Positions 8,835 through 48,127 of a stretch of 64,000 bases of DNA are shown here, in pieces. The position numbers and the translations under genes are program-made. This DNA comes from an uncultured Bacteroidota bacterium (lineage in GTDB: Bacteria; Bacteroidota; Bacteroidia; AKYH767-A; OLB10), in contig CAINEC010000064.1 of assembly GCA_903847585.1 (NCBI GenBank), positions 10,225 through 74,224 on the forward strand, read 5' to 3'. Position 1 is the first letter of the stretch. Every line of letters starts with the position of its first letter. A model generated the notes under the pieces. The model was not told where the DNA came from. It made no database searches and saw only the letters and a list, made by a program, of their open reading frames with translations.

Positions 8835-8943
8835 AATAACGTGAAGTTTGTAACGGGTTTGTTTTTCTGTGTTATTCCGTATTTCAAAAATAAAAAAATA
8901 TTGAATAAAAAAGGCCTTATTTTTCAATAAGACATTTGCTTTT

Positions 8944-10350
8944 TTAGATATGAATTGCCCGGTTATCCGTTGCCGCTAAACAGGCTTCTTTAAATGCTTC
9001 TGTAAACGTTGGATGCGCATGGCTCATTCTGGCTATATCCTCTGCCGAAGCTCTGTATTCCATAGCCACAACAGCCTCTGCAATTAAATCAGCACAACGT
9101 GGTCCGATCATATGTACTCCCAAAATCTCGTCTGTTTCTTTATCTGCTAATACTTTGATAAACCCATCTAAGTCCATACTCGCACGCGCTCTACCACTTG
9201 CTTTAAATGGAAACATTCCCGACTTATATGCTTTCCCCTGTGCTTTTAACTCTTCTTCTGTATGGCCTACCGCAGCTACTTCTGGCCATGTGTAAACAAC
9301 CCCCGGAATTAATAGGTAATTGATATGTGGTTTTTGTCCTGCGATTAACTCAGCAACATAGGTTCCTTCTTCTTCTGCCTTATGCGCTAACATTGCCCCT
9401 TTTACAACATCACCTATTGCATAAACACCTTTTGCAGCGGTTTGTAAATGCTCATCAACGATGATTCTTCCTCGCTCATCTTTCGCGATGCCTGCATTCT
9501 CTAATCCTAAATTCTCTGTGTATGGCGAACGACCTACACATACTAGACAATAATCTCCTGTAAGTTCTAATTCTTTGCCGTCTTTATTCGCAGTAGCTTT
9601 TAGTTTTACATTCTTACCTTTTACTTCTACACCACTTACTGCATGCGATAAATAAAATTCAACTCCTGTTTTTGCTAATACTTTTTGTAGTTCTTTTCCT
9701 AATGATTTATCCATTGTAGGAATGATGGAATCAGCATATTCAACTACACTAACCTTTGCGCCTAGCCGCGCATATACACTTCCTAGTTCTAATCCGATTA
9801 CACCGCCACCAATAATTAATAAATGCTTAGGAATTTCTTTAAGTTTTAAAGCTTCCGTAGAGGTAATAATACGTTGCTTATCGATAGTAACACCTTTCAG
9901 ATTAGAAGGCTTTGAACCCGTTGCAATAATGGTATTTTCAGAAGTGATGGTTTCAACGCTTCCATCTTCTTTTTTAATATTGATTGTTTTCGCATCAACA
10001 AAAGAGGCAAATCCGTGAATCACATCAACCTTGTTTTTCTTCATTAAAAAACGAATACCTTGTACCGTTTGCGTGATTACGTCTTCTTTACGCTGAATCA
10101 TCTGCGGAAAGTTGATCGATAATCCTTTAACATCAATACCATGCTCCTTGAACTGATGCGCAGCTTGATGATAATGCTCTGATGAATCCAACAATGCTTT
10201 TGAAGGAATACATCCAACATTTAAACAAGTTCCACCAAGGGAATTATATTTTTCAATTAACGCTGTTTTCTTTCCTAATTGAGCTAAACGAATTGCTGCT
10301 ACATAGCCACCTGGGCCTGCACCAATTACCACTGCATCATATGAAGCCAT
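8944..10350 (-). CDS. lpdA: Dihydrolipoyl dehydrogenase
   Basis: GAGPGGY FAD motif, GGTCLNVGCIPSK redox disulfide, HAHPT...E catalytic dyad. Confidence 0.97.
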   Translation of the reverse strand: MASYDAVVIGAGPGGYVAAIRLAQLGKKTALIEKYNSLGGTCLNVGCIPSKALLDSSEHYHQAAHQFKEHGIDVKGLSINFPQMIQRKEDVITQTVQGIRFLMKKNKVDVIHGFASFVDAKTINIKKEDGSVETITSENTIIATGSKPSNLKGVTIDKQRIITSTEALKLKEIPKHLLIIGGGVIGLELGSVYARLGAKVSVVEYADSIIPTMDKSLGKELQKVLAKTGVEFYLSHAVSGVEVKGKNVKLKATANKDGKELELTGDYCLVCVGRSPYTENLGLENAGIAKDERGRIIVDEHLQTAAKGVYAIGDVVKGAMLAHKAEEEGTYVAELIAGQKPHINYLLIPGVVYTWPEVAAVGHTEEELKAQGKAYKSGMFPFKASGRARASMDLDGFIKVLADKETDEILGVHMIGPRCADLIAEAVVAMEYRASAEDIARMSHAHPTFTEAFKEACLAATDNRAIHI

Positions 10351-34813: not shown

Positions 34814-34920
34814 TTTGGGCGCCCCCCAGTAGTAGAGCTAGCTTCGCTTCGCACACTACTTGGCCGGGCTATCCGTTTGTTTCTGCTGACGCAGGAAACC
34901 ACTTCTATCCCTGGCGCAAA
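34814..34920 (+). ncRNA. Structured intergenic element resembling the Flavo-1 RNA motif / Bacteroidota repeat
   Basis: GGGCGCCCCCC..GGCCGGGCTATCCGTT..hairpin..CCACTTCTATCCCTGGCGC. Nested stems CCAGTAGT/ACTACTTGG and TTTCTGC/GCAGGAA. Family assignment is from recall, not a search. Confidence 0.6.
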
Positions 34921-34949
34921 TTTATCAATGCAAAAACACTTATTCGCTT

Positions 34950-35987
34950 TTATGCTAAATCGTCAAACAGACTTCCTTTGTCTTTAAAGAACTTCTTTCC
35001 TAAATGACGGTAAGCCTTCTCCGTTACTTCTCTGCCGCGAGGCGTTCTTACTAAAAAGCCTTCCATAATCAAAAATGGTTCATACACTTCTTCTATTGTA
35101 CCACCTTCTTCTCCAACTGCTGTTGCTAAAGTGTTTAATCCAACAGGACCACCTTTGAATTTATCAATGATAGATGAAAGAATACGATTATCCATTTCAT
35201 CTAATCCAAACATATCTACGTTTAATTTTTCCAACGAAAATTGCGCAATAGATAAGTCAATATTACCATCACCTTTTATCTGCGCAAAGTCACGCACGCG
35301 GCGTAACAACGCATTTGCAATACGAGGTGTTCCTCTACTTCTACGAGCAATTTCATAAGCTGCATCTTCTGAAATTTCAATCTTTAAAATTTCACTTGCA
35401 CGCTGTACAATTAACGTCAAACGCTTTGCATCATAGTACTCTAAACGTGACGTAATACCGAAACGTGCACGTAAAGGAGCCGTTAATAATCCAGAGCGAG
35501 TAGTAGCGCCCACTAATGTAAAAGGATTCAATTGAATTTGCACGGAACGAGCATTCGGTCCGCTTTCAATCATAATATCAATACGGAAATCTTCCATCGC
35601 CGAGTATAAATACTCTTCAACAACTGGACTTAACCGATGAATCTCATCAATGAATAAAACATCATTAGGTTCAAGATTAGTTAGCAATCCTGCCAGGTCT
35701 CCCGGCTTATCTAAAACAGGCCCTGAAGTAGTTTTAATATTTGATCCTAGCTCGTTTGAAATAATGTAGGCCAACGTAGTTTTTCCTAATCCTGGAGGGC
35801 CATGCAATAGCACATGATCCAACGATTCACCGCGTTGTGCTGCTGCCTTCACAAATATTTTCAAATTCTCGACTACCTGATCTTGTCCTGTAAAATCTCC
35901 AAAATCACCGGGACGCAATGCCTTCTCAATATCTCTTTCTGTGGTGTTCATCTTTTCTTTTTCAGGATCTAAATGCTGATTTCTCAT
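34950..35987 (-). CDS. ruvB: Holliday junction branch migration helicase RuvB
   Basis: [24 protein letters not shown] and RTPRGR motifs. Confidence 0.98.
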
Positions 35988-36126
35988 TCAACAAATTTAA
36001 GAAACATCCACCACAATAATTAATTATTAAAGTTCAATATCGGTGCTAATACTCAATTATCATTCAACACTTGAGTCAGCTTAGTGTTTTTCGTATATTT
36101 ACACTTAGAATTTAAAAAAAATCACG

Positions 36127-36672
36127 ATGTACGGATTAGTAAATCAAGCTATACAAGGCTTAGTAATTGATAATTTTGGTGAAGACAACTGGAAAGCAAT
36201 TAAGCAAAAGGCAAACGTAACAGAAGATTCTTTCCTAAGCAATGAAATCTATGATGATAGTATTACATTCAATTTAGCAGTTTCTGCCTCTGAAGTATTA
36301 AATATTCCTTTAGCAGATGTTCTTAAAACATTTGGTAAATATTGGATTATCAAAGTAGGCAACGAAAAATATGGTCCGTTGATGAAATCAGGTGGTGATA
36401 ACTTCATCGACTTTATCGTAAACCTTCCTAATTTCCATAGTCGTGTAATGCTTATTTACTCCGACATCAAACCACCCGAATTTATTGTAGAAAAAGTAAC
36501 AGACAAACAGTTGAAATTGCATTACTATTCTACTCGTCAAGGGTTAACAGATTTTATGTTTGGGTTAATACAAGGACTAGGTGAACTATATCAAACGCCA
36601 ATAGATATTAAATTAATTGCTGATCGCAGAAATGGTGATGAGCACGATATTTTTGAAATAGTTATTCTATAA
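36127..36672 (+). CDS. H-NOX (heme NO-binding) protein
   Basis: MYGLVN start, Y.D.IT, FG.YW, LPNFHSRV proximal His, PP.F, YYSTR (YxSxR) motif. Confidence 0.95.
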   Translation: MYGLVNQAIQGLVIDNFGEDNWKAIKQKANVTEDSFLSNEIYDDSITFNLAVSASEVLNIPLADVLKTFGKYWIIKVGNEKYGPLMKSGGDNFIDFIVNLPNFHSRVMLIYSDIKPPEFIVEKVTDKQLKLHYYSTRQGLTDFMFGLIQGLGELYQTPIDIKLIADRRNGDEHDIFEIVIL

Positions 36673-37826
36673 TGATTAGTACCACAGAGAGCAATTTACT
36701 TATCAGCAGATTGTTCCCATTCTACTTTTCACTTGATCAAGATTTAATAATTAAAGATGCGGGAATCAGTTTAAAAAAAATAATCGGCGACGATTGTATT
36801 GAGAGTGCATTCTCCGATTTTTTTACTTTTCTACGACCAGGCCTAGGAATCAAATACCATATCGATTCTATCAAGCAATACGAAAACCAGATTTTTATTT
36901 TGCAGGGCAAATCGCAATCATCCAACTTCAGAATGAAGGGACAGTTTATCGTTCATCAAGAAAACCGAACGTTACTATTTTGTGGTTCACCCTGGATTGT
37001 TTCTGAAAAAGATTTTGAAAGCTTAGGATTAAAAATTAAAGACTTTGCTTTGCATGATTCAACTATCGATATGATTCAGAATTTGCGTGTTCAACAAATG
37101 GCCGTTGAAGACTCCAATCATGTAAACAAAATGTTATTGGAAAAGAATGAGGAACTAAAAAAGACGAATGCTGAATTAGATCGTTTTGTCTATAGCGTTT
37201 CTCATGATTTACGTTCGCCATTATTATCAATCCACGGAGTAATCGATATTTTAAAACAGAAAGAATCCATTAGTGAAACAGGCAATCAATTGCTACAGAT
37301 GATTGTTAATTCCATCGATCGACTAGACAATTCGATCGTTGAAATTTTAGATTATAGTCGTAATGCACGCTTCGACGTAGAACATGTTGAGCTCGACTTA
37401 AACACCATTTTACAACAAATCACCACGGACTTACAACATCTCGCTCCAGTTAGATTTGACATACAATTTGAAACTTCTGCTATTGTTACTAGTGATAAAT
37501 TCCGATTGATAACTATTTTAAAAAACACGATAAGCAACGCTGTAAAATATCGCAAACAAAATGATACAGATTGCTTCGTAAATATCAAAGTAAGTAAAGA
37601 AGATAACTATACAATTATTCGAATAGAAGATAATGGTATTGGAATCAGCGAAAAAAGTTTACCGAAAATTTTCGATATGTTTTTTAGAGCTACTAGTAGT
37701 GTAGCAGGTACTGGTCTCGGACTTTATATCTGCAAAGAAATGATCACTAAGCTGGGCGGCGCAATCAACCTCGATTCAAAATTAGGGGAAGGAACTAAGG
37801 TTACAATTAAAATTCCTTCTAACTAA
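36672..37826 (+). CDS. Sensor histidine kinase with N-terminal HNOBA (sGC PAS-like) domain
   Basis: LFPFYFSLD.DL, MKGQF, LFCGSPW and GL.I.DFALHDS (HNOBA); H-box SHDLRSP, N-box NAVKY, DNGIGI, GTGLGL. Confidence 0.9.
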   Translation: MISTTESNLLISRLFPFYFSLDQDLIIKDAGISLKKIIGDDCIESAFSDFFTFLRPGLGIKYHIDSIKQYENQIFILQGKSQSSNFRMKGQFIVHQENRTLLFCGSPWIVSEKDFESLGLKIKDFALHDSTIDMIQNLRVQQMAVEDSNHVNKMLLEKNEELKKTNAELDRFVYSVSHDLRSPLLSIHGVIDILKQKESISETGNQLLQMIVNSIDRLDNSIVEILDYSRNARFDVEHVELDLNTILQQITTDLQHLAPVRFDIQFETSAIVTSDKFRLITILKNTISNAVKYRKQNDTDCFVNIKVSKEDNYTIIRIEDNGIGISEKSLPKIFDMFFRATSSVAGTGLGLYICKEMITKLGGAINLDSKLGEGTKVTIKIPSN

Positions 37827-38719
37827 TCTTTCTTCCAGATATTAATTGAGCGATCATCGCCTGCACTAATCAAAGTGTTATCGTCTATCCACAATAATGT
37901 ATTGACAGAATTTAAATGTCCATCATTTGAATGTTCAATACGCTGAATAACCTGATTCGTATTTGCATCCCAAATTTTTAATGTCTTATCACGACTAGCA
38001 GTAGCAAATAATTTTCTATCAAGCGAAAATCCGATTTTATAAATCGCATAATTGTGAGCAGGAATTGCATTCACAACCGTATAATCTTTTTTGTCAACCC
38101 ATCTTAAATGCGCATCTCTTCCACCGCAAAGTAAAATATCATCAGTGTAATGAATAATCGCATTAACAGAAAAACCTTGCTTCGATAGTTGATTACTATA
38201 GGTCACTTCCATCGTATCGTCATCAAAAACATAAAACATCCCTTCACCACAACCAACAAATGTTTTGTTTAGCTTTTCGTCAAAAAAAACAGAACGCAAT
38301 TTCATAGTAGAAATTTTTTGTTTGAAGATCAATGAATAATCTGCTGATGATAATACGGACAATACTCCGTCACCGCCTAATACATACACCTTCGATTTAC
38401 TTTTATTCTCAACGATAGAAAACACCCCTTTCTCATTTACTTTCAACAATCTCTTCTCCTGGTTGTTCGATAAATCGATGACATGAATTTCTCCTTTCGC
38501 CTGACCGATTAATAATTCATTTTTACCTTCCAGATAACATATTGAATAAATACTATCAGACGCTCTCGCAATTAAATTACCTTGTTCAGGTTGATCAATG
38601 TTCCATGATACCACTAAACGATCGCCAGATGCCGACAAAAATGATTTATCGCTTAATTTAATTAAATCATACACGCCACTTGTATGACCTAAACAACGAT
38701 TATGTAATTTGAATTGCAT
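37823..38719 (-). CDS. WD40-repeat beta-propeller protein
   Basis: GH...Y, SASGD, AHNYAIY, ATASRDKTLKIWD and SAGDDRSINIW repeats. Confidence 0.92.
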   Translation of the reverse strand: MQFKLHNRCLGHTSGVYDLIKLSDKSFLSASGDRLVVSWNIDQPEQGNLIARASDSIYSICYLEGKNELLIGQAKGEIHVIDLSNNQEKRLLKVNEKGVFSIVENKSKSKVYVLGGDGVLSVLSSADYSLIFKQKISTMKLRSVFFDEKLNKTFVGCGEGMFYVFDDDTMEVTYSNQLSKQGFSVNAIIHYTDDILLCGGRDAHLRWVDKKDYTVVNAIPAHNYAIYKIGFSLDRKLFATASRDKTLKIWDANTNQVIQRIEHSNDGHLNSVNTLLWIDDNTLISAGDDRSINIWKKD

Positions 38720-38840
38720 ATTGCAAAGATACGGCAGCCAATGATAACTATCGTGTTAATTTAAATTAATCGTTTGTAAATGGATATAAACGTTTAATAA
38801 CCGAATAAAAAAACAATCATCCTTAATCTTGCAACATGAT

Positions 38841-39094
38841 TGTTCAACCCTGTAGCGCAATGCTACAGGGTTGGCAATTACCAATGAATGAATCGATTAA
38901 TTAATGTTAAATGGAAAACAATAATCTACCAATGTTCAACCCCGCAATGCTGCGGGGTTGGCGAAATAAAAACCACGAAGTGGTTTAACAAACATAAATA
39001 ATCACGAACTATAAAACTCATCAAACCGCAACGCGGTTCAACAACCATCACCTATCACATACTATTAACCCCAGAACCGCAACGCGGTTCAACA
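38841..39094. repeat. Cluster of five REP-like hairpins (TGTT + palindrome)
   Basis: Plus strand: 38841-38873 and 38933-38960. Minus strand: 38970-38990, 39023-39043 and 39074-39094. All read TGTT-NAACC...GGTTN. Confidence 0.85.
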
Positions 39095-39105
39095 AAATCA
39101 AACTT

Positions 39106-39552
39106 ATGACGACCTACACCCAAATCATTTACCAGATAGTTTTCGCGACGAAAAGACGACAGAAAACACTAAGCGCCGAAAATCGGCAACGGCTTTTCGC
39201 GTACATGGCAACTGTAATCAGAAACAAAAAATGCCTGCCTTATTGTATCAACGGTGTTGAAGACCACCTCCACATTGTATGCGACCTCCATCCTTCAGTT
39301 GCGTTAGCTTCATTGGTAAAAGACATTAAACTTTCAAGCACAATTTTTATAAAGGAAAACAAACTCTTTAAAAAATTTAATGGATGGCAATCGGGTTATG
39401 GAGCATTTACCTATACTATAGAGGAAAAGCCAAGGCTTATTCGCTACGTCGAGAATCAGGAAAATCATCATAAGAAAAAGAAATCCATAGAAGAACAAAG
39501 AGACTTTTTAATGGCTCATGAAGTGGAGTTTTATGAAAAATATTTTACCTAG
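39106..39552 (+). mobile_element. tnpA: Y1 HUH transposase (IS200/IS605 TnpA family, probably REP-associated RAYT/TnpA-REP type)
   Basis: Y.IVFATK.R, DHLHI (HUH), WQSGYGAFT, RYVENQE.HH (catalytic Tyr); no tnpB follows; REP-like array immediately upstream. Confidence 0.9.
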
Positions 39553-39668
39553 TTGCTAAAACTATTTATATGATAAACCATGAATAATAACCTTTCAATT
39601 GAATTTAATTTTTTCCGACAATACAGGTCAATCATAAAAATAAATTTGGTTATCATAAAAAATCGTTT

Positions 39669-39676
39669 TTACTTTG
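39669..39676 (+). promoter_or_regulatory. Probable -7 promoter element for the metK leader
   Basis: TTACTTTG, a variant also found 4 nt before radA and 7 nt before the SDR gene; it ends 4 nt before the GCATT core of the first aptamer's P1 strand. Confidence 0.55.
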
Positions 39677-39679
39677 CAT

Positions 39680-39776
39680 CGCATTCAGACATCATATGTA
39701 ATGTATGATACCAACCGAGCGGACGATGCAACGGTGGTAAAACGATGCGGACCAGGAGTCAAAAAAGCGCTTTGCA
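39680..39776 (+). promoter_or_regulatory. SAM riboswitch aptamer 1 (SAM-I/IV-type, lacking P4)
   Basis: P1 CGCAUU/GAUGCG; J1/2 CAGA; P2 UCAUAU/GUAUGA; P3 UACCAACC/GGUGGUA with AA/U pocket; P5 GAC-CAGGA-GUC; L3 GAGCG complementary to tail CGCUU; lies upstream of metK. Confidence 0.8.
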
Positions 39777-39843
39777 CAATAAACCCTCCCTCCTCTCGTT
39801 AATGTTACAGATTGCAGAGTACAATTTGTTCTTTATTTTTTAA

Positions 39844-39953
39844 TACATCAAGAATTATAGTTCCGACTATAATACCAACCGAGCGTATCCGCGCCACGGT
39901 GGTAAAGCGATGTGGACGTTCAGTCAAAATAAAACAGGATATCCACTTCGCTT
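39844..39953 (+). promoter_or_regulatory. SAM riboswitch aptamer 2 (SAM-I/IV-type, lacking P4)
   Basis: P1 UACAUC/GAUGUG; J1/2 AAGA; P2 UUAUAGU/ACUAUAA; P3 UACCAACC/GGUGGUA; P5 GAC-GUUCA-GUC; L3 GUAUCC complementary to tail GGAUAU (pseudoknot). Confidence 0.85.
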
Positions 39954-40004
39954 CTTTTTGATGTATGTATTGAGTTAGAAATTAAACTTTAATTCCATCA
40001 TACT

Positions 40005-41423
40005 ATGAAACAATTCGATTATTCGTTTACGAGCGAATCGGTGTCGGCAGGACACCCAGACAAAGTGGCTGATCAAATTTCAGACGCTATTCTTGATGCT
40101 TACTTAGCACAAGACCCGCATGCTAAAGTAGCCTGCGAATGTTTAATTACAACCAATCATTTAACGATTGCTGGTGAGGTGACTTCTACCGCTATTGTAG
40201 ATCCTATTGCGATTGCAAAAGAAGTATTGGAGCGCATCGGTTATAATGATTCAGCATCAGGTTTTAATTGGAAAACTGCATTCTATCAAAATTTATTACA
40301 TCAACAAAGTCGTGAAATTAACGATAGCGTTGCCGATGGAGGTGCAGGTGATCAAGGATTAATGTTTGGCTATGCAACATCCGAAGGCCCGAACTTTATG
40401 CCTTTACCTATCTGGCTTGCTCATCAGCTAATGCGCAAACATCAGGAACTTCGCGATAGTGGTAAATATCCATTCTTACTTCCTGATGCTAAATCGCAAG
40501 TCACAGTTGATTACAATATCAATACACCAGTAGGTATTAGCAAAGTTGTTTTATCCGCACAACATACTCCTGATATCAAGCAAGAAGACTTACGCAAGTT
40601 TATCATCGCTGAAATCATTGAACCTGTAATTGCAAATTATAAAGGTGAATCCGAGACTGAATATTTAATCAATCCTTCTGGAAGTTTTACTATTGGTGGC
40701 CCGCATGGTGATACTGGTTTAACAGGAAGAAAAATTATTGTGGATACTTATGGAGGTAAATGTCCACATGGAGGTGGTGCCTTCTCTGGTAAAGACCCAA
40801 GCAAAGTAGATCGTTCTGCTGCATATATGGCACGCTACATAGCAAAAACGTTAGTAGCCAACGGATATGCGAAAGAATGTACAATTCAACTAGCCTATGC
40901 TATTGGACATGACCAACCGCTTTCGGTTCACGTTAATACACATGGAACAGGTAACCAACATCCAGATACGCGGTTAGCCCTTGCCGTTAGAGCAGTATTT
41001 GATTTGAATCCGAACGGAATTATCAAAGAACTCGGACTAAAACAACCTATCTATAGTCAAACTGCTATCAATGGACATTTCGGAAATTTAGATTTCCCAT
41101 GGGAGAAAGTATCGTCTGAAAAAGCAAATCGCCTACGTGAATATTTTGAAACTGGCTACGGAACAGAGTTGCGAAATAAGGAATGGAAAAAACTTTTGGC
41201 CGCATCTAGCTTAGATAAACTAATTGAAAATTTTAATCGCGAAGTAAGAGTTCCTGCATCCAGCAGCGCACGATTTGAATATATCATTTTACTGGTTGAT
41301 GAAATCAAAAACAGAGACATTGATATTTCATGTATTACAGGCGAAAACAATTCGATTCGTTTAAGTAAGAAAGTAAAAATTGTAAATAACACCTTAGTAT
41401 ATTCAGAAGAAAATAATTTGTAA
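40005..41423 (+). CDS. metK: S-adenosylmethionine synthetase with ~90-aa C-terminal extension
   Basis: FTSESV..GHPDK, GAGDQGLMFG, PD.KSQV, GDTGLTGRKII.DTYGG, GGGAFSGKDPSKVDRSAAY and FPWEK motifs, followed by extra sequence. Confidence 0.96.
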   Translation: MKQFDYSFTSESVSAGHPDKVADQISDAILDAYLAQDPHAKVACECLITTNHLTIAGEVTSTAIVDPIAIAKEVLERIGYNDSASGFNWKTAFYQNLLHQQSREINDSVADGGAGDQGLMFGYATSEGPNFMPLPIWLAHQLMRKHQELRDSGKYPFLLPDAKSQVTVDYNINTPVGISKVVLSAQHTPDIKQEDLRKFIIAEIIEPVIANYKGESETEYLINPSGSFTIGGPHGDTGLTGRKIIVDTYGGKCPHGGGAFSGKDPSKVDRSAAYMARYIAKTLVANGYAKECTIQLAYAIGHDQPLSVHVNTHGTGNQHPDTRLALAVRAVFDLNPNGIIKELGLKQPIYSQTAINGHFGNLDFPWEKVSSEKANRLREYFETGYGTELRNKEWKKLLAASSLDKLIENFNREVRVPASSSARFEYIILLVDEIKNRDIDISCITGENNSIRLSKKVKIVNNTLVYSEENNL

Positions 41424-41455
41424 TTAATGTCAATCCTTAAAAATAAAAATTAAAA

Positions 41456-41791
41456 ATGAGAACGGATAAAATCATAAAAGAAGCAAGTGACAAAAAGCTT
41501 CTTGACTTGCTAAATTGCCTCTTAACTCGTGACAACGATTTCAAAAATCCTCGATTAATTCTCACAAAAGTCGTCTACGAACTTGCTCTAAGAAAATACA
41601 ATCTCAAAAATTTATTTACTGATGATCAGGAAGTAAAACGAGGTAAATTCTTTAAAGCAAAGCAAAACACTTTAATAGAAGATCCTAAAAGAGTAATTAC
41701 CACACAGGATATTGGAAGAAGTTTTTTGATGGCGCTCGAGTTAAAAGGTCCAACTAATGACAGACTGGGGAAATCATTTAGTCGTAATTAA
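41456..41791 (+). CDS. Hypothetical protein similar to the MetK C-terminal extension
   Basis: 111-aa ORF 32 nt after the metK stop, preceded by an A-rich leader; aligns by eye to the extension. Confidence 0.75.
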   Translation: MRTDKIIKEASDKKLLDLLNCLLTRDNDFKNPRLILTKVVYELALRKYNLKNLFTDDQEVKRGKFFKAKQNTLIEDPKRVITTQDIGRSFLMALELKGPTNDRLGKSFSRN

Positions 41792-41836
41792 TACTATTTC
41801 TATAAAACATTCTTCACCCTAAAAAAATCTTAGAAC

Positions 41837-42283
41837 ATGAAAAAATCAATCATTCTGTTGCTAACCATTCTGGGAATAGTTACAACAAGCAAAGCACAGT
41901 ATTACGAACTATCAACTCATGCTGTGGGCGATACAGTGGAGATAGTGGATTCAACAACAGTGCAAGTGCTGAATATGACTATTGGAGACATGAATATTGA
42001 AAGCGCTAAGTCGTGCAAGGTAATTAATGTGTTTCGACTACAAGAATATGCCGATGACGACACTAAACTAATTCCATCATTCATTGGAACCAAGATTCAT
42101 TTTCAAGCTACAGATGATCAATGGAATTATTTAGACCTGAATATTTATGTCGACTTACAAGCCAACTTCCATGCAAGAGGAATTTTTAATGGGAGGACCT
42201 TTACGAGATATCTAGATAATGGAAATTTATATTATGACGATAATGATGAAATGGTTCCAAATTTTGATTGGGAAATTTACTGA
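41837..42283 (+). CDS. Secreted acidic hypothetical protein
   Basis: Signal peptide MKKSIILLLTILGIVTTSKA; Asp/Tyr-rich mature region. Confidence 0.8.
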   Translation: MKKSIILLLTILGIVTTSKAQYYELSTHAVGDTVEIVDSTTVQVLNMTIGDMNIESAKSCKVINVFRLQEYADDDTKLIPSFIGTKIHFQATDDQWNYLDLNIYVDLQANFHARGIFNGRTFTRYLDNGNLYYDDNDEMVPNFDWEIY

Positions 42284-42299
42284 TTGCCTGGCATTTTTA

Positions 42300-42332
42300 G
42301 GAGGAGGAGTGGTGGTGCCGCTCCTCCTTTTG
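42300..42332 (+). terminator. Intrinsic terminator closing the metK cluster
   Basis: AGGAGGAGTGG-tggtg-CCGCTCCTCCT followed by TTT. Confidence 0.8.
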
Positions 42333-42468
42333 ATTGAGTATAAGGTTGTATATAATCTTAGTAGGAAATAATCGTTTATTTATTTTTAAGATGTACTTAA
42401 ATAATAAATTCTTGTTAGCTATTCCCTATTCAACAATTACAGAAGTATTAATTTAATACCTTAGCACC

Positions 42469-43149
42469 ATGTTAAAAAAGGTCTTACGAATAGTTGGAAT
42501 ATTTGCAGCTGCATTTTTTTTGTTGAGCATTGGGACAACTATCATCTATCGTTGGATAAACCCTCCAGTTACCTTACTCATGATTTCGCGATACTTCGAT
42601 CCAGAGATTGGTAAATTAGAAAAAGAATGGAAATCGCTGGATGAAATTTCCCCGAAGCTTCCACTTGCTGTTGTTACTTCCGAAGATCAAAAGTTTGAAG
42701 ATCATTTTGGATTCGATTTAGAGGCCATCGAAAAAGCGGCCGACTATAACGCTACGCATAAGGGTAAACCTGTTAAGGGCGCATCTACTATTAGTCAGCA
42801 GACCGCCAAAAATGTTTTCTTGTGGCAATCGCGAAGCTGGTTTAGAAAAGGATTGGAAGTGTACTTTACTTTTCTAATTGAAATTTTTTGGAGTAAAGAA
42901 CGAATCATGGAAGTGTACTTAAACGTGATTGAAATGGGTCCTGGTATTTATGGAGCAGAAGCAGCATCTCAATATTATTTTCACAAGCCTGCGATTAAAT
43001 TATCGAAAGGAGAAGCAGCACTCATCGCAGCAATACTTCCGAATCCACTTAAATGGTCAGCATCGAAACCGACTCCATACATCCGAAGAAAAAAAGTATG
43101 GATCATGACGCACATGAAGTACATCGAGCTAAAAGAAATCAATAATTAA
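42469..43149 (+). CDS. mtgA: Monofunctional peptidoglycan transglycosylase
   Basis: SEDQKF..HFGFD, GASTISQQTAKN, RKGLE, KERI.EVYLN and GAEAAS.YYF motifs. Confidence 0.96.
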   Translation: MLKKVLRIVGIFAAAFFLLSIGTTIIYRWINPPVTLLMISRYFDPEIGKLEKEWKSLDEISPKLPLAVVTSEDQKFEDHFGFDLEAIEKAADYNATHKGKPVKGASTISQQTAKNVFLWQSRSWFRKGLEVYFTFLIEIFWSKERIMEVYLNVIEMGPGIYGAEAASQYYFHKPAIKLSKGEAALIAAILPNPLKWSASKPTPYIRRKKVWIMTHMKYIELKEINN

Positions 43150-43673
43150 AATCCGAGATTTACTCCTGCTCGGATAATAGGATTTTCATAGTAAGAATAC
43201 TGACTAGGAGAGAAATTCCACAACCCCATAATAACAAAACTAGATCGGTCGCTGATAGGAGTAACATAGCCGCCGCCTAATAATAATGATTCAATATTTG
43301 TACGAATCAGTTTTGTTTGAAGTAAGTTGGGCACTTCCGCATTAATCACTTCATATTCTCCATACAATATAGCCTTGGGATGGACTCTGTATTGCGCGAA
43401 TATTCTTCCGCCATACGTATTCGTCTCATAATAATAACCAGGGTAGCGCTTATCATTTAAGTAACTATACGAAGGTCCAAAGCCAGCACCAAACTCCTCT
43501 GTAATTTTGTAACCTATCGTTGGTGCTAAATAAATATACGTCACCGTTCCGAAGTTTAACCCCACATTTCCGCCGTAAAACAATCGATCTTTAAACGGTG
43601 GTTTGGCCGCTTCTTGCTGTGCATAAGAAGCCATCGAAAACAAACATATCGCAAGTAATATTCTGAATTTCAT
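43146..43673 (-). CDS. Hypothetical outer-membrane beta-barrel-like protein
   Basis: Signal peptide from MKFRILL; alternating Gly/aromatic strands; terminal Phe. Confidence 0.7.
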   Translation of the reverse strand: MKFRILLAICLFSMASYAQQEAAKPPFKDRLFYGGNVGLNFGTVTYIYLAPTIGYKITEEFGAGFGPSYSYLNDKRYPGYYYETNTYGGRIFAQYRVHPKAILYGEYEVINAEVPNLLQTKLIRTNIESLLLGGGYVTPISDRSSFVIMGLWNFSPSQYSYYENPIIRAGVNLGF

Positions 43674-43730
43674 AAAATAATTGTTCAATCAAAGATATCG
43701 AATTAAATAGATTGTTTACTTTGCATCATC

Positions 43731-44432
43731 ATGGAAATTAAAACCATTCTTATTACAGGGGCTTCATCAGGTGTAGGCTATCAAACAGCCTTGCAACTTT
43801 CGCAACAAGGCCATCAGGTAATTGCACTTGCCAGAAACACCGATTTACTCGAAAAATTAAAGGCAGCATCAGCAGGAAAAATCATTGTTTGCTCGCATGA
43901 TTTAGCCACTTTAATTTTTGATGCAGTACTCAACACTTTAAAGAATAACAACATCGATCATATTGATGTTTTAATCAATAATGCAGGACAGTTAGTGAAT
44001 AATAATTTTGAAAAAATCACTTCATCAGAATTAATTGGGGCTTATAACACAAACGTATTTGCGCCTTATTTACTCATACAGGCATTATTACCCGCACTGA
44101 AAAAATCAACGTATCCGCATATCATCAATATCAGTTCGGTTGGCGGAATTCAAGGCAGTGTAAAGTTTGCAGGACTATCTGCTTACTCTTCTTCCAAAGG
44201 AGCATTAACCATTCTAACGGAATGCCTAGCCGAAGAATTTAAAGATCAAAATATAAAAGTCAATTGCTTAGCATTAGGCGCTGTAAATACTGAAATGTTA
44301 TCGAAAGCATTTCCCGGCTATAACGCACCACTAAGCGCAGCCGAAATGGGCAACTATGTAACGTGGTTTGCTGAAAACGGACATCAATACTTTAACGGAA
44401 AAATAATTCCAGTAGCATTAAGCACCCCTTAA
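43731..44432 (+). CDS. SDR-family oxidoreductase
   Basis: TGASSGVG, NNAG, YSSSKGA (YxxxK) motifs. Confidence 0.93.
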   Translation: MEIKTILITGASSGVGYQTALQLSQQGHQVIALARNTDLLEKLKAASAGKIIVCSHDLATLIFDAVLNTLKNNNIDHIDVLINNAGQLVNNNFEKITSSELIGAYNTNVFAPYLLIQALLPALKKSTYPHIINISSVGGIQGSVKFAGLSAYSSSKGALTILTECLAEEFKDQNIKVNCLALGAVNTEMLSKAFPGYNAPLSAAEMGNYVTWFAENGHQYFNGKIIPVALSTP

Positions 44433-44433
44433 A

Positions 44434-45165
44434 ATGATTAAACTTCTAAAAGCACTCTACGCTGTATATTGCTTACTAGCATTTGCAGCTTCCTTTATCA
44501 TTGTTATTCCTTGCTACTTTATTGTTTTTAATTTATTCTCGAAAAAGAAAGCGCCATTCATTGCCCATAAGGTTTCTAAGTTCTGGGCGCATTTATTATT
44601 CGTTTTGTTTTTAGTAAGATGTAAAATTGAAAACAAAGAATACATTGATCCTGATAAGCAATATGTTTTTGTCGCGAATCATTTATCAATGTTAGACATC
44701 CCTGCATACGCTGCTGCGTGTAGTAATAGTTTTCGTTTTTTATCGAAGGCAGAGTTGGCAAAAATTCCATTGTTAGGTTACGTTATCAAAAATTTATACA
44801 TCACAGTTAACCGTACCGATCGTTCCGATAGAAGTAAAAGTATCGAACGCATGAAAGAAACAATTGATGAGGGCTTGTCTGTTTTCTTAGCTCCCGAAGG
44901 AACAAGAAATAAAACAGAAGCTCCGCTACTTGAATTCAAAGATGGCGCTTTCCGATTAGCTATTTATGCGCAAGTACCAATTGCTGTTTTAACGCTTAAA
45001 AATCCGCATCACCTACACTCACCTAAACGTATGTTAAGTATGCGCCCTGGTGTATTGCATGGAACGTGGAGTAAACCCATCGAGACAAAAGGAATGACAG
45101 AAGCCGATGTTCCTCGTTTAAAAGAGATGGTGCGACAACAAATGTTGGAGTATCTGCAATCGTAA
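44434..45165 (+). CDS. 1-acyl-sn-glycerol-3-phosphate acyltransferase (PlsC family)
   Basis: NHLSMLD (HX4D), PEGTRN and FKDGAF motifs. Confidence 0.92.
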   Translation: MIKLLKALYAVYCLLAFAASFIIVIPCYFIVFNLFSKKKAPFIAHKVSKFWAHLLFVLFLVRCKIENKEYIDPDKQYVFVANHLSMLDIPAYAAACSNSFRFLSKAELAKIPLLGYVIKNLYITVNRTDRSDRSKSIERMKETIDEGLSVFLAPEGTRNKTEAPLLEFKDGAFRLAIYAQVPIAVLTLKNPHHLHSPKRMLSMRPGVLHGTWSKPIETKGMTEADVPRLKEMVRQQMLEYLQS

Positions 45166-45242
45166 ATAGCAAAGGCCTTGCACTAACGAGATTATTAATG
45201 CAAAGCCTTTGGAAGTAAATCATTTTTCATTGTTAACTTTTG

Positions 45243-45635
45243 TTAGCCTCCTTTATTCTTTATTGGTTTAACATCAGCTTTCGCTTTTATTAGATCGGGA
45301 TTTACATATTTATCATCGACAATGTCGTAAATAGTATATCCGTTTAGCACCTCTGATTTCATTTTCTGATTGAGGTAAGAGATGACCACCTTTATTATGG
45401 CGGGATCGAGAATTTTGTCTGTATCATATTTAATTAATAAGCAACTTGACGATTGATGATAACCACTAAGATGAACTCCATCTAAGCAACGCATCCAACG
45501 ATTTATTTTATAGACCGTCCATTCATTTAAAACAGGCGTCTTAATAACTAACTCTTTCCATCCGCTCACATTCTGAGCTGATGAATACAAACTCATCGCA
45601 ACAAAGAAGGAAAGAAGTATCGTTCGTTTAATCAT
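45243..45635 (-). CDS. Small secreted hypothetical protein, paralog-like to 31894-32262
   Basis: Signal peptide ending SAQ; LVI.TP...LDGV.L..Y pattern. Confidence 0.7.
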   Translation of the reverse strand: MIKRTILLSFFVAMSLYSSAQNVSGWKELVIKTPVLNEWTVYKINRWMRCLDGVHLSGYHQSSSCLLIKYDTDKILDPAIIKVVISYLNQKMKSEVLNGYTIYDIVDDKYVNPDLIKAKADVKPIKNKGG

Positions 45636-45763
45636 AGAAGCAAGTTAAGCCGTAAAAAAGGACAGCGTAAAAAATTTGTTTGAAAACCTTACAAGCATCT
45701 TACAAACAAAAATCAGCTTGGTATTAACTCAAAGCGATTATATTTGACATAGATTATACTTTT

Positions 45764-47665
45764 ATGAATACAAGAATCGATTCGATGGAAGCCTATCATG
45801 AGGCTTATGAAAAAAGCGTTCGTCAACCTGAGAAATTCTGGGCAGATATTGCCAATGAATTTACCTGGAAAACTCGCTGGAATAATGTACTTAACTGGGA
45901 CTTTAAATCGTTTGATGTAAAATGGTTTGAAGGAGCAACTTTAAATATTACAGAAAACTGCCTCGACCGTCACCTAGAAAAAAATGGAGATACACCAGCC
46001 ATTATCTGGGAGCCCAACGACCCTAACGGTAAAGGATGTACGCTCACGTATAAAGAACTTCATCAAGAGGTTTGTAAAGCCTCTAATATGTTAAAACGCT
46101 TAGGGGTAAAAAAAGGTGATCGTGTTTGTATTTACATGCCTATGGTGCCAGAAGCAGCTGTTGCGATGTTGGCCTGTGCAAGATTGGGCGCGATTCATTC
46201 CATTGTATTCGCAGGATTCTCTGCGCAAAGTTTAGCCGATCGTATTAATGATGCAACTTGTAAATTAGTCATTACAGCTGATGGCGTTTACAGAGGAGCG
46301 AAAGCCTTGAACTTAAAAGAAATAGTTGATGAGGCGTTAACGTCTACGACATCCGTAGAAAAAGTAATTGTATTAAAACATTTATCCTCTTCTATTTTTA
46401 TGCATTCAGAAAGAGATATTTATTGGCAAGATGCTATTTCAGGCTGCAGCGATGTTTGTGAAGCAGAACCGATGGATGCAGAGGATATGTTATTCATTTT
46501 ATACACCTCAGGCTCTACGGGTAAACCAAAGGGTGTTGTTCATACCACAGCAGGTTATATGGTATGGGCTGGCTATACATTCAACAATGTATTTCAGTAT
46601 AACGCAGGAGATATTTACTGGTGTACTGCCGACATTGGTTGGGTAACTGGACATTCGTATATTGTATATGGTCCGTTATTGAATGGGGCTACTACATTAA
46701 TGTTTGAAGGAATACCTACCTACCCTGATGCAGGTCGTTTTTGGAATGTGATTGATAAACACCAAGTGAATATTTTTTATACTGCTCCGACTGCAATCCG
46801 TTCGTTAATGGCACAAGGCGATGAATTCGTTAAGCCCTATGCGTTAGATAGCTTAAAAACATTAGGCTCCGTTGGAGAACCTATCAACGAGGAAGCATGG
46901 AACTGGTATCATGAAAAAATTGGTAAAGGTCGTTGCGGAATTGTTGATACCTGGTGGCAAACAGAAACAGGCGGTGTAATGATTTCTCCGCTGGCGAATA
47001 TTACTCCTACTAAACCGACCTATGCTACCTTACCACTTCCGGGAGTTCAACCTGTGCTGGTAGATGCCGAAGGAAAAATAATTGAAGGAAATAATGTGGA
47101 AGGGAACTTATGCATCCAATTTCCATGGCCAGGTATGTTAAGAACCACTTATGGAGATCATGAACGATGCAGAACAACTTATTTTAGCACTTACGATAAT
47201 TTATACTTTACTGGTGATGGTTGTAAACGCGACCACGATGGTTATTACCGAATAATTGGAAGAGTTGATGATGTAATCAATGTAAGTGGCCACCGATTAG
47301 GAACAGCAGAAGTTGAGAATGCCATTAACGAACATATTCACGTGATTGAATCGGCTGTGATTGGTTACCCACATGAAATTAAAGGACAGGGTATATACGC
47401 ATACGTTATATGCGATCAATTACCAGCTGATGAACACAAGACCCGCAAAGAAATATTAGACGTAGTAAGCAAAGTAATTGGTCCAATTGCTAAGCCCGAC
47501 AAAATTCAATTTGTAACGGGATTACCTAAAACACGCTCAGGTAAAATCATGCGAAGAATTTTAAGAAAAGTAGCAGAGAACGATATAAGCAATTTAGGCG
47601 ACACGAGTACTTTGTTAGACCCAAGTGTGGTAGATGCGATTATTGAGGGAGCGAAAAATATTTAG
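45764..47665 (+). CDS. acs: Acetate--CoA ligase
   Basis: YTSGSTGKPKGV, DTWWQTETG, GRVDDV and PKTRSGKIMRR motifs. Confidence 0.97.
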   Translation: MNTRIDSMEAYHEAYEKSVRQPEKFWADIANEFTWKTRWNNVLNWDFKSFDVKWFEGATLNITENCLDRHLEKNGDTPAIIWEPNDPNGKGCTLTYKELHQEVCKASNMLKRLGVKKGDRVCIYMPMVPEAAVAMLACARLGAIHSIVFAGFSAQSLADRINDATCKLVITADGVYRGAKALNLKEIVDEALTSTTSVEKVIVLKHLSSSIFMHSERDIYWQDAISGCSDVCEAEPMDAEDMLFILYTSGSTGKPKGVVHTTAGYMVWAGYTFNNVFQYNAGDIYWCTADIGWVTGHSYIVYGPLLNGATTLMFEGIPTYPDAGRFWNVIDKHQVNIFYTAPTAIRSLMAQGDEFVKPYALDSLKTLGSVGEPINEEAWNWYHEKIGKGRCGIVDTWWQTETGGVMISPLANITPTKPTYATLPLPGVQPVLVDAEGKIIEGNNVEGNLCIQFPWPGMLRTTYGDHERCRTTYFSTYDNLYFTGDGCKRDHDGYYRIIGRVDDVINVSGHRLGTAEVENAINEHIHVIESAVIGYPHEIKGQGIYAYVICDQLPADEHKTRKEILDVVSKVIGPIAKPDKIQFVTGLPKTRSGKIMRRILRKVAENDISNLGDTSTLLDPSVVDAIIEGAKNI

Positions 47666-47692
47666 TTTACTAAATGATTTGTTGCAAAGACC

Positions 47693-48127
47693 TCAATTGA
47701 CTTTTTTCGTTGTCTGCCAAGCAGCTAATTGCCATTGTCGTTTACGTTTAATGTACACAGCGGTAAATCTTCCATCTAACTTGTAGGGAGTATCATAATA
47801 GCGTCCTTGCATATGCACTAATCCAGCTGCAATGACTGTTTTTTTATTCAGAAAAACGTATTGCGTACTATCCGTAACAAAAGATTCAAACTTATACTTT
47901 CCACTTTTCAGCGCAAGTAAATAGGCCTGCTTATCTTCAAAGTTTAAATTCGAATGTGTGTATAAAAGATTGTTAGATATTAATTGAGTCGTTTTTGAAA
48001 TATCACCGTCAACTAATGCTTGATACCTTCCACTTTCAAAAGCTTTTATTGCAGTGAGATCTGATTGGGCAAAGGCATTATTTGCGGCGAGTAATAATGT
48101 AAACAACACAATTATTTTTGATTTCAT
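47693..48127 (-). CDS. Secreted NTF2-like (DUF4440) protein
   Basis: Signal peptide from MKSKII; L.YTHSN and FTAVY.K....WQL.AWQ motifs. Confidence 0.8.
   Translation of the reverse strand: MKSKIIVLFTLLLAANNAFAQSDLTAIKAFESGRYQALVDGDISKTTQLISNNLLYTHSNLNFEDKQAYLLALKSGKYKFESFVTDSTQYVFLNKKTVIAAGLVHMQGRYYDTPYKLDGRFTAVYIKRKRQWQLAAWQTTKKVN

Follow-up and report, generated by a model that had tools for sequence, protein, structure and literature searches.

An extended metK behind paired SAM-I/IV aptamers: a probable accessory SAM synthetase operon in a freshwater Chitinophagales clade

The metK locus and its parts

Contig CAINEC010000064.1 of an uncultured Bacteroidota bacterium (assembly GCA_903847585.1; GTDB lineage AKYH767-A, OLB10) carries a compact block in which two riboswitch aptamers for S-adenosylmethionine (SAM) precede a SAM synthetase gene, metK, and two small genes, orf111 and orf148. 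The stretch analysed, here called the window, comprises 64,000 nucleotides (nt; positions 10,225 to 74,224 of the forward strand). The MetK protein carries a C-terminal extension of about 88 amino acids (aa). The block is probably a dispensable accessory operon of a genus-level freshwater clade of Chitinophagales, from which a second SAM synthetase would be expressed when SAM is scarce. The features of the locus, in window positions, are as follows.

39676-42336, plus strand: block as a whole (aptamers, metK, orf111, orf148 and terminator)
38845-39095, plus strand: cluster of five GC-rich hairpins resembling repetitive extragenic palindromes (REP-like), from a repeat search
39106-39552, plus strand: tnpA, Y1 tyrosine transposase of the insertion sequence (IS) type IS200/IS605 (Pfam Y1_Tnp, PF01797, E 3.8e-20)
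39676-39776, plus strand: SAM-I/IV aptamer 1 (RF01725, 42.9 bits)
39807-39841, plus strand: terminator-like 8-bp hairpin, proposed expression platform of aptamer 1
39840-39941, plus strand: SAM-I/IV aptamer 2 (RF01725, 53.5 bits)
39954-40011, plus strand: proposed expression platform of aptamer 2 (alternative pairings)
40005-41423, plus strand: whole metK, 472 aa
40005-41156, plus strand: metK catalytic core, aa 1-384, methionine adenosyltransferase (three MetK Pfam domains)
41157-41423, plus strand: MetK C-terminal extension, aa 385-472 (family profile)
41456-41791, plus strand: orf111, basic protein, pI 9.85
41837-42283, plus strand: orf148, small acidic protein with a predicted signal peptide
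about 42294-42336, plus strand: intrinsic terminator closing the operon (dG -31.3 kcal/mol, z -5.65)
37823-38719, minus strand: WD40-repeat gene, left flank
42469-43149: mtgA, monofunctional transglycosylase (Transgly), right flank

The gaps between metK and orf111 (32 nt) and between orf111 and orf148 (45 nt) contain no terminator-like site, and none of 200 shuffled sequences was as stable as the terminator that follows orf148. The three genes are predicted to form one operon and to be transcribed together. Much of this anatomy had been read from the letters alone in an earlier note (the original prediction), which placed tnpA, two SAM aptamers, an extended metK, two further open reading frames (ORFs) and one strong terminator between WD40 and mtgA, and every one of these statements was borne out. 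The gap sizes are those given in that note, the leader estimated there at about 325 nt measures about 330 nt with both aptamers above the gathering score of RF01725, the SAM-I/IV model (41.1 bits), and Pfam confirms both flanking genes. The protein described as secreted and acidic is orf148, which has a signal-type N-terminus and a mature pI of 4.2.

Conservation, loss and control of the operon

The gene order RuvB, H-NOX, histidine kinase, WD40, (tnpA), aptamers, extended metK, orf111, orf148-like gene, (orf154) and mtgA recurs in five species-representative metagenome-assembled genomes (MAGs) and in many metagenome contigs (carrier assemblies JBDKGQ01, JBKCGZ01, CALQOD01, CANGJU01 and JBJOND01); one MAG of the clade, represented by its mtgA side alone (L085), is labelled Chitinophagales. 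Searches by profile hidden Markov model (HMM) and by jackhmmer, run over every ORF in the 1.6 Mb of fetched loci, found orf111 and orf148 in the metK operon only. The co-occurrence that the original prediction had proposed as a check is thus strict in the loci examined, where the three ORFs are also lost together. The ratio of nonsynonymous to synonymous substitution rates (dN/dS) is 0.06-0.10 for the MetK core, 0.05-0.22 for the extension, 0.06-0.26 for orf111 and 0.11-0.15, where measurable, for orf148. Since all these values fall within 0.05-0.26, the four parts are real genes or gene segments under purifying selection.

Further members of the clade were retrieved by anchoring on mtgA, and two of them lack the operon. 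Locus L026 (CANFIN010000028; mtgA 96% and RuvB 93% identical) has a WD40-mtgA spacing of just 65 nt and no counterpart of window 38738-42450. Locus L029 (JBJTMY010000231) retains WD40, tnpA with its REP hairpins and the leader as far as window 39675 and then jumps to the last ~26 codons of orf148 and the terminator (window 42224-42331), an internal deletion that removes both aptamers, metK, orf111 and most of orf148. The two loci are ~80-87% identical in nucleotide sequence to the carrier loci L027 and L030 and therefore represent sister species. A relocated module was found in neither non-carrier MAG by scans with a peptide pattern and with an invariant 46-nt stretch of aptamer 2; each scan detected the module in an identical set of five MAGs and nowhere else.

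Because the block is absent (L026) or deleted (L029) at the syntenic site, the operon is dispensable, and the gene does not behave as the sole housekeeping metK of the cell. SAM synthetase is essential in free-living bacteria. Cells that have deleted the operon must therefore obtain SAM in another way, for which a second metK is the simplest explanation. The original prediction had suspected an acquired extra copy and had named sole vertical inheritance as the finding that would speak against it; the loss of the operon from two sister species argues against sole inheritance. Accessory status is thus backed by two sister species that lack the block at the syntenic site, one with a deletion scar, while the second metK itself was not seen: no other metK turned up in the 64 kb window or, by chance, in the 1.6 Mb of fetched relatives.

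Expression of the operon is predicted to respond to SAM. Aptamer 1 begins 329 nt upstream of the metK ATG and also exceeds the RF01725 threshold in L004, L005, L007, L010 and L014, while aptamer 2 scores 49.9-53.5 bits in L004-L007, L010 and L014; orthologous aptamers range overall from 42.4 to 53.5 bits, and both members of the pair pass the gathering score in the window and five other loci. Both lie upstream of metK on the same strand, and an aptamer also precedes metK in L018, L019, L104, L105 and L106. By these covariance scores the leader is a pair of SAM-I/IV riboswitches, predicted to bind SAM and to control the genes downstream. The 370-nt leader is 92-99% identical between genomes in which dS of the flanking coding sequence is 0.44-1.1. 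Near-identity despite nearly saturated synonymous sites indicates that the RNA as a whole is strongly constrained, and the riboswitch control claimed in the original prediction is in this respect well founded.

Aptamer 1 is followed by an 8-bp hairpin with arms ACAGAUUG/CAAUUUGU and a U-rich tract, UCUUUAUUUUUU. The hairpin is kept in six loci, where changes from G.U to A-U and from A-U to G.U preserve pairing and dG ranges from -5.4 to -6.5. In the window, the 5' P1 region of aptamer 1 can pair with 39795-39822, which overlaps the 5' arm of the hairpin (dG -13.8, matched by 0 of 300 shuffles). This layout appears to be the classical terminator/antiterminator design. A C-rich tract between the aptamers (CCCTCCCTCCTCTC, 39783-39799) is almost invariant in six loci. 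The G-rich 3' side of aptamer 1 offers it a pairing partner, and the tract may serve to load Rho or belong to the switch.

Aptamer 2 has a different arrangement. Its 5' P1 strand (39842-39855) has two possible partners, the proximal GAUGU, with which it closes the aptamer, and a longer distal strand at 39954-39967, CUUUUUGAUGUAUG, and the distal helix (dG -12.8 by RNAduplex) was equalled in 0 of 300 shuffles. The distal strand can alternatively pair across the metK AUG at 39998-40011 (dG -5.4). The same three-partner layout, built from different sequences, recurs before related metK genes in L104, L105 and L106/L018/L019, with distal helices of -15.4 to -16.5 and start-region duplexes of -7.1 to -15.7, and is thus present in four sequence-divergent lineages. 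Such pairing is the signature expected of a translational OFF switch. Initiation of translation in Bacteroidota depends on an unstructured start region, which makes masking of the start codon a sensible means of control in this phylum. Support for the platform is moderate in the case of aptamer 1 and strong for the distal helix of aptamer 2.

The two aptamers would act in series. SAM bound to aptamer 1 would allow the weak hairpin and U-tract to form and transcription would stop; SAM bound to aptamer 2 would stabilize P1 formation, freeing the distal strand to mask the metK start codon. Together they may constitute a steep, two-level OFF switch. An operon repressed by SAM should be induced by SAM starvation.

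The extended MetK and the two small proteins

The catalytic part of MetK is unexceptional. All three MetK domains (PF00438, PF02772 and PF02773) are found, the last ending at aa 368, and a score of 512.9 bits places the protein well over the cut-off of the TIGR01034 equivalog model (309.4). It is ~54% identical to Escherichia coli MetK. In an alignment to solved bacterial MetKs, the substrate- and metal-binding motifs GHPDK, GAGDQG, DAKSQV, GGPHGDTGLTGRKIIVDTYGG and GGGAFSGKDPSKVDRS are intact and GGP.GD.GLTGRKIIVDTYGG is conserved. The first ~370 residues are, as far as sequence can tell, an ordinary and catalytically intact bacterial MetK of the short type, whose core may, as the original prediction suggested, be shorter than that of the usual Bacteroidota enzyme.

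Residues ~385-472 match nothing in Pfam, NCBIfam or PHROGs; in the searches with the extension and orf111, a weak hit to DUF7516 (E 0.022) was below threshold and was disregarded. The AlphaFold2 (AF2) model of the extension (mean predicted local distance difference test, pLDDT, 86) consists of a helical linker followed by a domain of ~70 aa with three helices and a beta-hairpin. Foldseek returned no significant match to it in the PDB (best E 2.5) or BFVD (0.31). Four uncharacterized phage proteins of 54-79 aa among the BFVD matches (A0A516LV04, A0A6J5L682, A0A6J5TCM5 and A0A6J5LUW1) superpose over ~45 residues at a root-mean-square deviation of ~1 A, with non-significant E values of 0.8-4.4. 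A remote link between the extension domain family and phages is possible on the basis of these models.

A word-indexed search with the full-length protein recovered extended MetKs of 463-488 aa outside the clade of the window, including those of Flavisolibacter longurius BT320 (JABUMY01) and a Sphingobacteriales MAG, whose tails align with the window tail. The same search with the extension alone returned nothing and missed even the protein of the window. This empty result was read as a limitation of the index because an exhaustive profile search, in which ten tails were compared with 1.84 billion cluster representatives (clusters at 50% identity), gave 712 clusters at E<=1e-3, of which 182 reach E<=1e-10. 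Members of the family are mostly stand-alone proteins of 75-110 aa with the common motif ELIxxFNxEVGNxGWxxxRxxYLxALxxEFxxRxxDxS...KVxLxxNKI; in other cases the domain forms the C-terminus of an otherwise unannotated protein of 180-330 aa. An HMM of 150 members matches MetK aa 392-465 with E 1.5e-21. These profile comparisons show the MetK extension to be homologous to a large, unannotated family of small domains. No further extended MetKs were found in viral contigs or metagenome contigs, and among species-representative genomes the Flavisolibacter-type fusion occurs in F. longurius only. A neighbour-joining tree of MetK cores leaves the monophyly of the three groups of extended MetKs unsettled.

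The original prediction had called orf111 a stand-alone paralog of this extension. Direct comparison by BLASTP does not bear this out (E 0.68), and comparison of shallow profiles gave P 0.014. Deeper profiles compared by hhalign gave P 7.6e-5 with a probability of 62% over 69 colinear columns. The 150-member family HMM matches 18 of 18 orf111 homologues in one register (per-sequence P 1e-5 to 0.03), and hhalign of that family against orf111 gave P 2.3e-4. The AF2 models add a structural correspondence. In orf111 (pLDDT 81) helices span residues 12-24 and 32-45 and strands 66-69 and 72-75, and in the extension the equivalent elements lie at 36-46, 54-69, 90-93 and 96-99, a constant offset of 24 residues that is identical to the hhalign register. 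The order of elements, three helices with a beta-hairpin, is the same in both models. Thus residues 1-76 of orf111 probably represent the MetK extension domain in diverged form, a relationship that stands in profile and structure comparison and fails in BLASTP.

The orf111 gene lies directly after extended metK in every context examined, and its C-terminal tail, SFLMALELKGPTNDRLGKSFSRN, is nearly invariant. The family comprises 18 clusters among 5.8 billion proteins. It matches nothing in Pfam, NCBIfam, PHROGs or PADLOC, and Foldseek found no significant match in the PDB (best E 4.5). The orf111 protein may dock on MetK by domain-domain pairing and serve as a regulatory or protective subunit.

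The orf148 protein begins with MKK, a hydrophobic stretch and an SKA/Q junction, and a signal-type N-terminus is present in all orthologues. It is 26-47% identical between species in which MetK is 78-97% and mtgA 90-99% identical. It appears to be a fast-evolving, exported protein, which would be co-expressed with MetK and orf111. Some carriers have an extra ORF of 154 aa between the orf148 homologue and mtgA (L010 5495-5959 and L014 6895-7359), so that the 3' end of the operon is variable; jackhmmer found this ORF to be unrelated to orf148.

At the other end of the locus, the REP-like hairpins include CAACCCTGTAGC/GCTACAGGGTTG and AACCGCAACGCGGTTCAACAA, the last in two exact copies. This 18-mer has two matches in the 64 kb window, where 0.03 are expected, and both lie in the hairpin cluster. 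L029 carries four such copies (its hairpins and tnpA lie at 8800-9550). The tnpA gene is found at the same site in L003, L005, L006, L007 and L029 (79-99% identical) with dN/dS of 0.01-0.07; it is missing from the operon-bearing L004 and L010 and present in the operon-less L029. Because it is retained at one site across species, has a low dN/dS and survived the deletion of the operon, tnpA looks like a domesticated REP-associated transposase (RAYT) and not an active IS. Of the features that define RAYTs, the Y1 domain is matched and five hairpins lie directly upstream; dispersed REP copies are found nowhere else in the 64 kb window.

Related modules and alternative explanations

Outside the clade, all the related metK genes of the short type that were examined are preceded by a single SAM-I/IV aptamer (45-57.7 bits) 62-70 nt before the start codon; in the exception, L019, an ORF of 137 aa lies between aptamer and metK. 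In F. longurius (L018/L020) metK is directly downstream of PglZ and BrxL. The L019 gene has BrxL on one side and McrBC and HsdM on the other, with a DUF3293 gene, and that of L106/L107 closely follows the type I genes HsdS and HsdR. Peijinzhouia sedimentorum (L104) carries metK with HipA, DUF3293, a type IIG enzyme (N6_Mtase/Eco57I) and DUF2130. The metK of L112 is accompanied by Fic, AAA_14/DUF4143 and Metallophos genes, and that of L113 is flanked by IS110 and IS1595 transposases, DUF3293 and HIRAN also being present. In L105, a MetK-DUF3293 fusion is found amid peptidase genes. The metK modules of these relatives lie in variable, defence-rich or IS-flanked DNA.

Several side observations concern these modules. 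DUF3293 (PF11697) is a second small domain of unknown function linked to MetK: it is encoded beside aptamer-preceded metK in L019 (4881-5285), L104 (1035-1448) and L113 (7470-7871) and is fused to the MetK C-terminus in L105 (4519-6090; P0027, 523 aa). A literature search found nothing on it. An 86-aa publicly annotated gene in L106 (9744-10004) overlaps the SAM-I/IV aptamer at 9835-9939 and is probably spurious. In L018, L019 and L106 the extended MetK is followed by genes of 87 and 77 aa and a Metallophos phosphoesterase, and other unknown genes are common to the Flavisolibacter-group islands and to L112 and L113 (the stretches concerned are L018 8145-9648, L019 7554-9115, L106 12147-13164 and L112 7887-8681). 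The Metallophos gene of L112 has no relation to the other Metallophos genes by BLASTP. The shared genes suggest a larger recurring island or system.

The metK gene is also carried by Streptococcus 'Javan' prophages, the Faecalibacterium phage FP_Brigit and Streptomyces plasmids. All of these copies are <60% identical and none has the extension; the phage genes were judged non-extended because no phage match covers >=80% of the query.

The conserved housekeeping surroundings of the block in five species and numerous metagenome contigs, SAM-riboswitch control of the kind typical of primary metK genes, a score far above the TIGR01034 cut-off and the absence of a second metK from the 64 kb window are all in keeping with a sole, vertically inherited metK that has a lineage-specific tail, its absences being due to relocation, misassembly or MAG incompleteness. 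This is nevertheless distinctly unlikely. Two independent contigs lack the block at the syntenic site, one of them through a precise internal deletion on either side of which the ends of the transcription unit survive, and two scans detected no relocated copy in the non-carrier MAGs. Moreover, the nearest extended and short-type relatives occupy variable islands, and the Flavisolibacter-type fusion is found in one species-representative genome, that of F. longurius. The polymorphism of the block among species, together with tnpA and the REP-like hairpins at its 5' edge, could mean that it is moved as cargo by the neighbouring IS200-type transposase and is maintained selfishly. That the two elements occur apart (tnpA without the operon in L029, the operon without tnpA in L004 and L010), that no matching right end or repeat was found beyond the terminator (the detailed repeat search covered the left side, and the hairpin repeat occurs nowhere else in the window) and that all genes are under purifying selection make such an origin highly improbable.

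The composition of the operon is open to a different objection, that orf111 and orf148 are unrelated passengers and the likeness of orf111 to the MetK tail reflects chance or convergence. BLASTP finds no similarity and the hhalign probability is 44-62%, orf148 evolves very fast, some loci have the extra 154-aa ORF, and the Flavisolibacter-type fusions are followed by different small genes. Strict co-occurrence, joint loss and the short gaps without a terminator argue otherwise, as does a register that is the same in three independent profile comparisons and matches the secondary-structure offset in two AF2 models; the passenger explanation is rather unlikely on balance. As for what the operon does, phage T3 encodes a SAM lyase that cleaves SAM, inhibits MetK and defeats both the bacteriophage exclusion system BREX and type I restriction-modification (R-M). 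The original prediction had suggested that the operon restores SAM under such attack. In this counter-counter-defence explanation, depletion of SAM by phage SAM lyases or MetK inhibitors would induce a back-up synthetase; the fused domain and orf111 would protect this enzyme or change how it assembles, so that SAM-dependent R-M and BREX stay functional. Homologous modules adjoin PglZ/BrxL with McrBC/HsdM, HsdS/HsdR, and the type IIG N6_Mtase/Eco57I enzyme with HipA, and expression at low SAM only fits a depletion response. The contexts of the relatives thus make the idea of phage SAM depletion somewhat more plausible, circumstantially. In this clade, however, no defence genes surround the block and there are no PADLOC matches: MetK with its extension, orf111 and orf148 match nothing in PADLOC-DB 2.0, and of seven genes neighbouring the Flavisolibacter copy, one alone, of 139 aa, gave a match, a marginal one to PDC-S32 (E 0.0039). 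The sample of contexts is small and partly non-independent, since L018, L019 and L106 share flanking genes, the L105 fusion sits among peptidase genes, and ordinary SAM starvation explains the regulation equally well. A role in defence is unlikely. A broader version of the idea is as doubtful. It holds that short-type metK gated by SAM-I/IV riboswitches is a mobile back-up class, kept beside SAM-dependent defences as an anti-anti-defence layer, of which the operon of the window would be a chromosomally settled member. Speculatively, metK of this class would often be fused to or lie beside the extension domain, orf111 or DUF3293, and it might, with similarly low probability, enable Bacteroidota to restore SAM and to escape phage MetK inhibitors or SAM lyases.

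The preferred reading, a dispensable operon that supplies a second SAM synthetase under SAM scarcity, has observations of its own to contend with. The second metK is inferred, none having been observed, and a MAG may lack part of its genome. In this clade the block has housekeeping genes for neighbours and is not part of a defence island. The homology of orf111 to the extension (P ~1e-4, HHpred-style probability 44-62%) falls short of proof, and the extended MetKs of the Flavisolibacter group have no stand-alone paralog alongside. As to the switch, aptamer 1 is followed by a terminator hairpin of low stability (-5.4 kcal/mol), the antiterminator pairing is weaker and not significant in several orthologues, and the start-codon duplex of the window reaches just -5.4 kcal/mol. 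In its unliganded fold, aptamer 2 has a long hairpin with five U directly after it, which would naively be a terminator formed in the absence of SAM. After comparison of four lineages this reading, which would imply an illogical SAM-ON switch, was provisionally discounted in favour of the distal-helix and start-codon model, because the U-run complements a conserved AAGAA and is missing at this place in the other lineages.

Relation to known systems and the surrounding window

Riboswitch-controlled metK genes, tandem riboswitches and accessory metK copies are all known, and the operon is a variant of these. It shares with SAM-riboswitch metK genes (SAM-I/S-box, SAM-IV and SAM-I/IV; Rfam clan CL00012) the aptamer class, the gene and the feedback by which SAM shuts off its own synthetase. 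It differs from them in that the copy is dispensable and extra, is fused to an unknown domain and is followed by two added genes with no known link to SAM. Accessory metK genes on 'Javan' prophages, FP_Brigit and Streptomyces plasmids are likewise extra copies outside the core genome, whereas they are less than 60% identical and have no extension. A catalogue of tandem riboswitches lists 164 cases of paired SAM-I, 44 of paired SAM-II and 149 of SAM-II/SAM-V, with 7+2 mixed cases of SAM-II with SAM-I/IV; a SAM-I/IV homotandem is not listed (Sherlock et al. 2022, PMC9481103). Like the tandem same-ligand riboswitches, of which the SAM-II/SAM-V 'bi-mechanism' is an example, the leader has two aptamers, the first before a terminator-like hairpin and the second apparently acting on the translation start. 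Unlike the catalogued tandems, it is a SAM-I/IV homotandem, and its platforms are computational predictions only.

In eukaryotes, the regulatory subunit MAT2B inserts its C-terminal tail at the MAT2A dimer interface. By analogy only, a MetK oligomer could be modulated by a small partner that has a conserved tail and no catalytic role; MAT2A-MAT2B has no relation in sequence or fold to MetK-orf111. The T3 SAM lyase is a phage offence and not a host system, and it defines a pressure that would favour an altered, SAM-starvation-induced MetK beside BREX or R-M. A literature search found no description of a host back-up MetK or of such a MetK in defence islands.

Fusion to SAM synthetase provides a first functional handle on a widespread, unannotated domain family (the 712 clusters at 50% identity), and a SAM-I/IV homotandem with apparently two levels of control adds to the known designs of tandem riboswitches. 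The operon is also evidence that metK can take the form of an accessory gene, dispensable and riboswitch-gated, and such genes recur in phage-defence and IS-rich regions. Were the link to defence true, SAM supply would be a contested resource with dedicated host countermeasures.

Elsewhere in the window, an H-NOX (HNOB) gene is directly followed by a gene for an HNOBA-HisKA-HATPase_c histidine kinase (36127-37826). This pair, of the nitric oxide/oxygen sensor type, is kept beside RuvB in the clade and is absent in L029. A PADLOC scan of 40 other proteins of the window (outside 34900-47700) matched ShosA/PsyrA (E 2.3e-65) as well as mad3/mad8, AriA, GajA and HEC models. Cross-matching by a housekeeping DprA and by ABC and AAA ATPases is the likeliest source of these hits; the Pfam domain DNA_processg_A is present among the proteins of the window and fits DprA. 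The remainder of the 64 kb window looks housekeeping in character.

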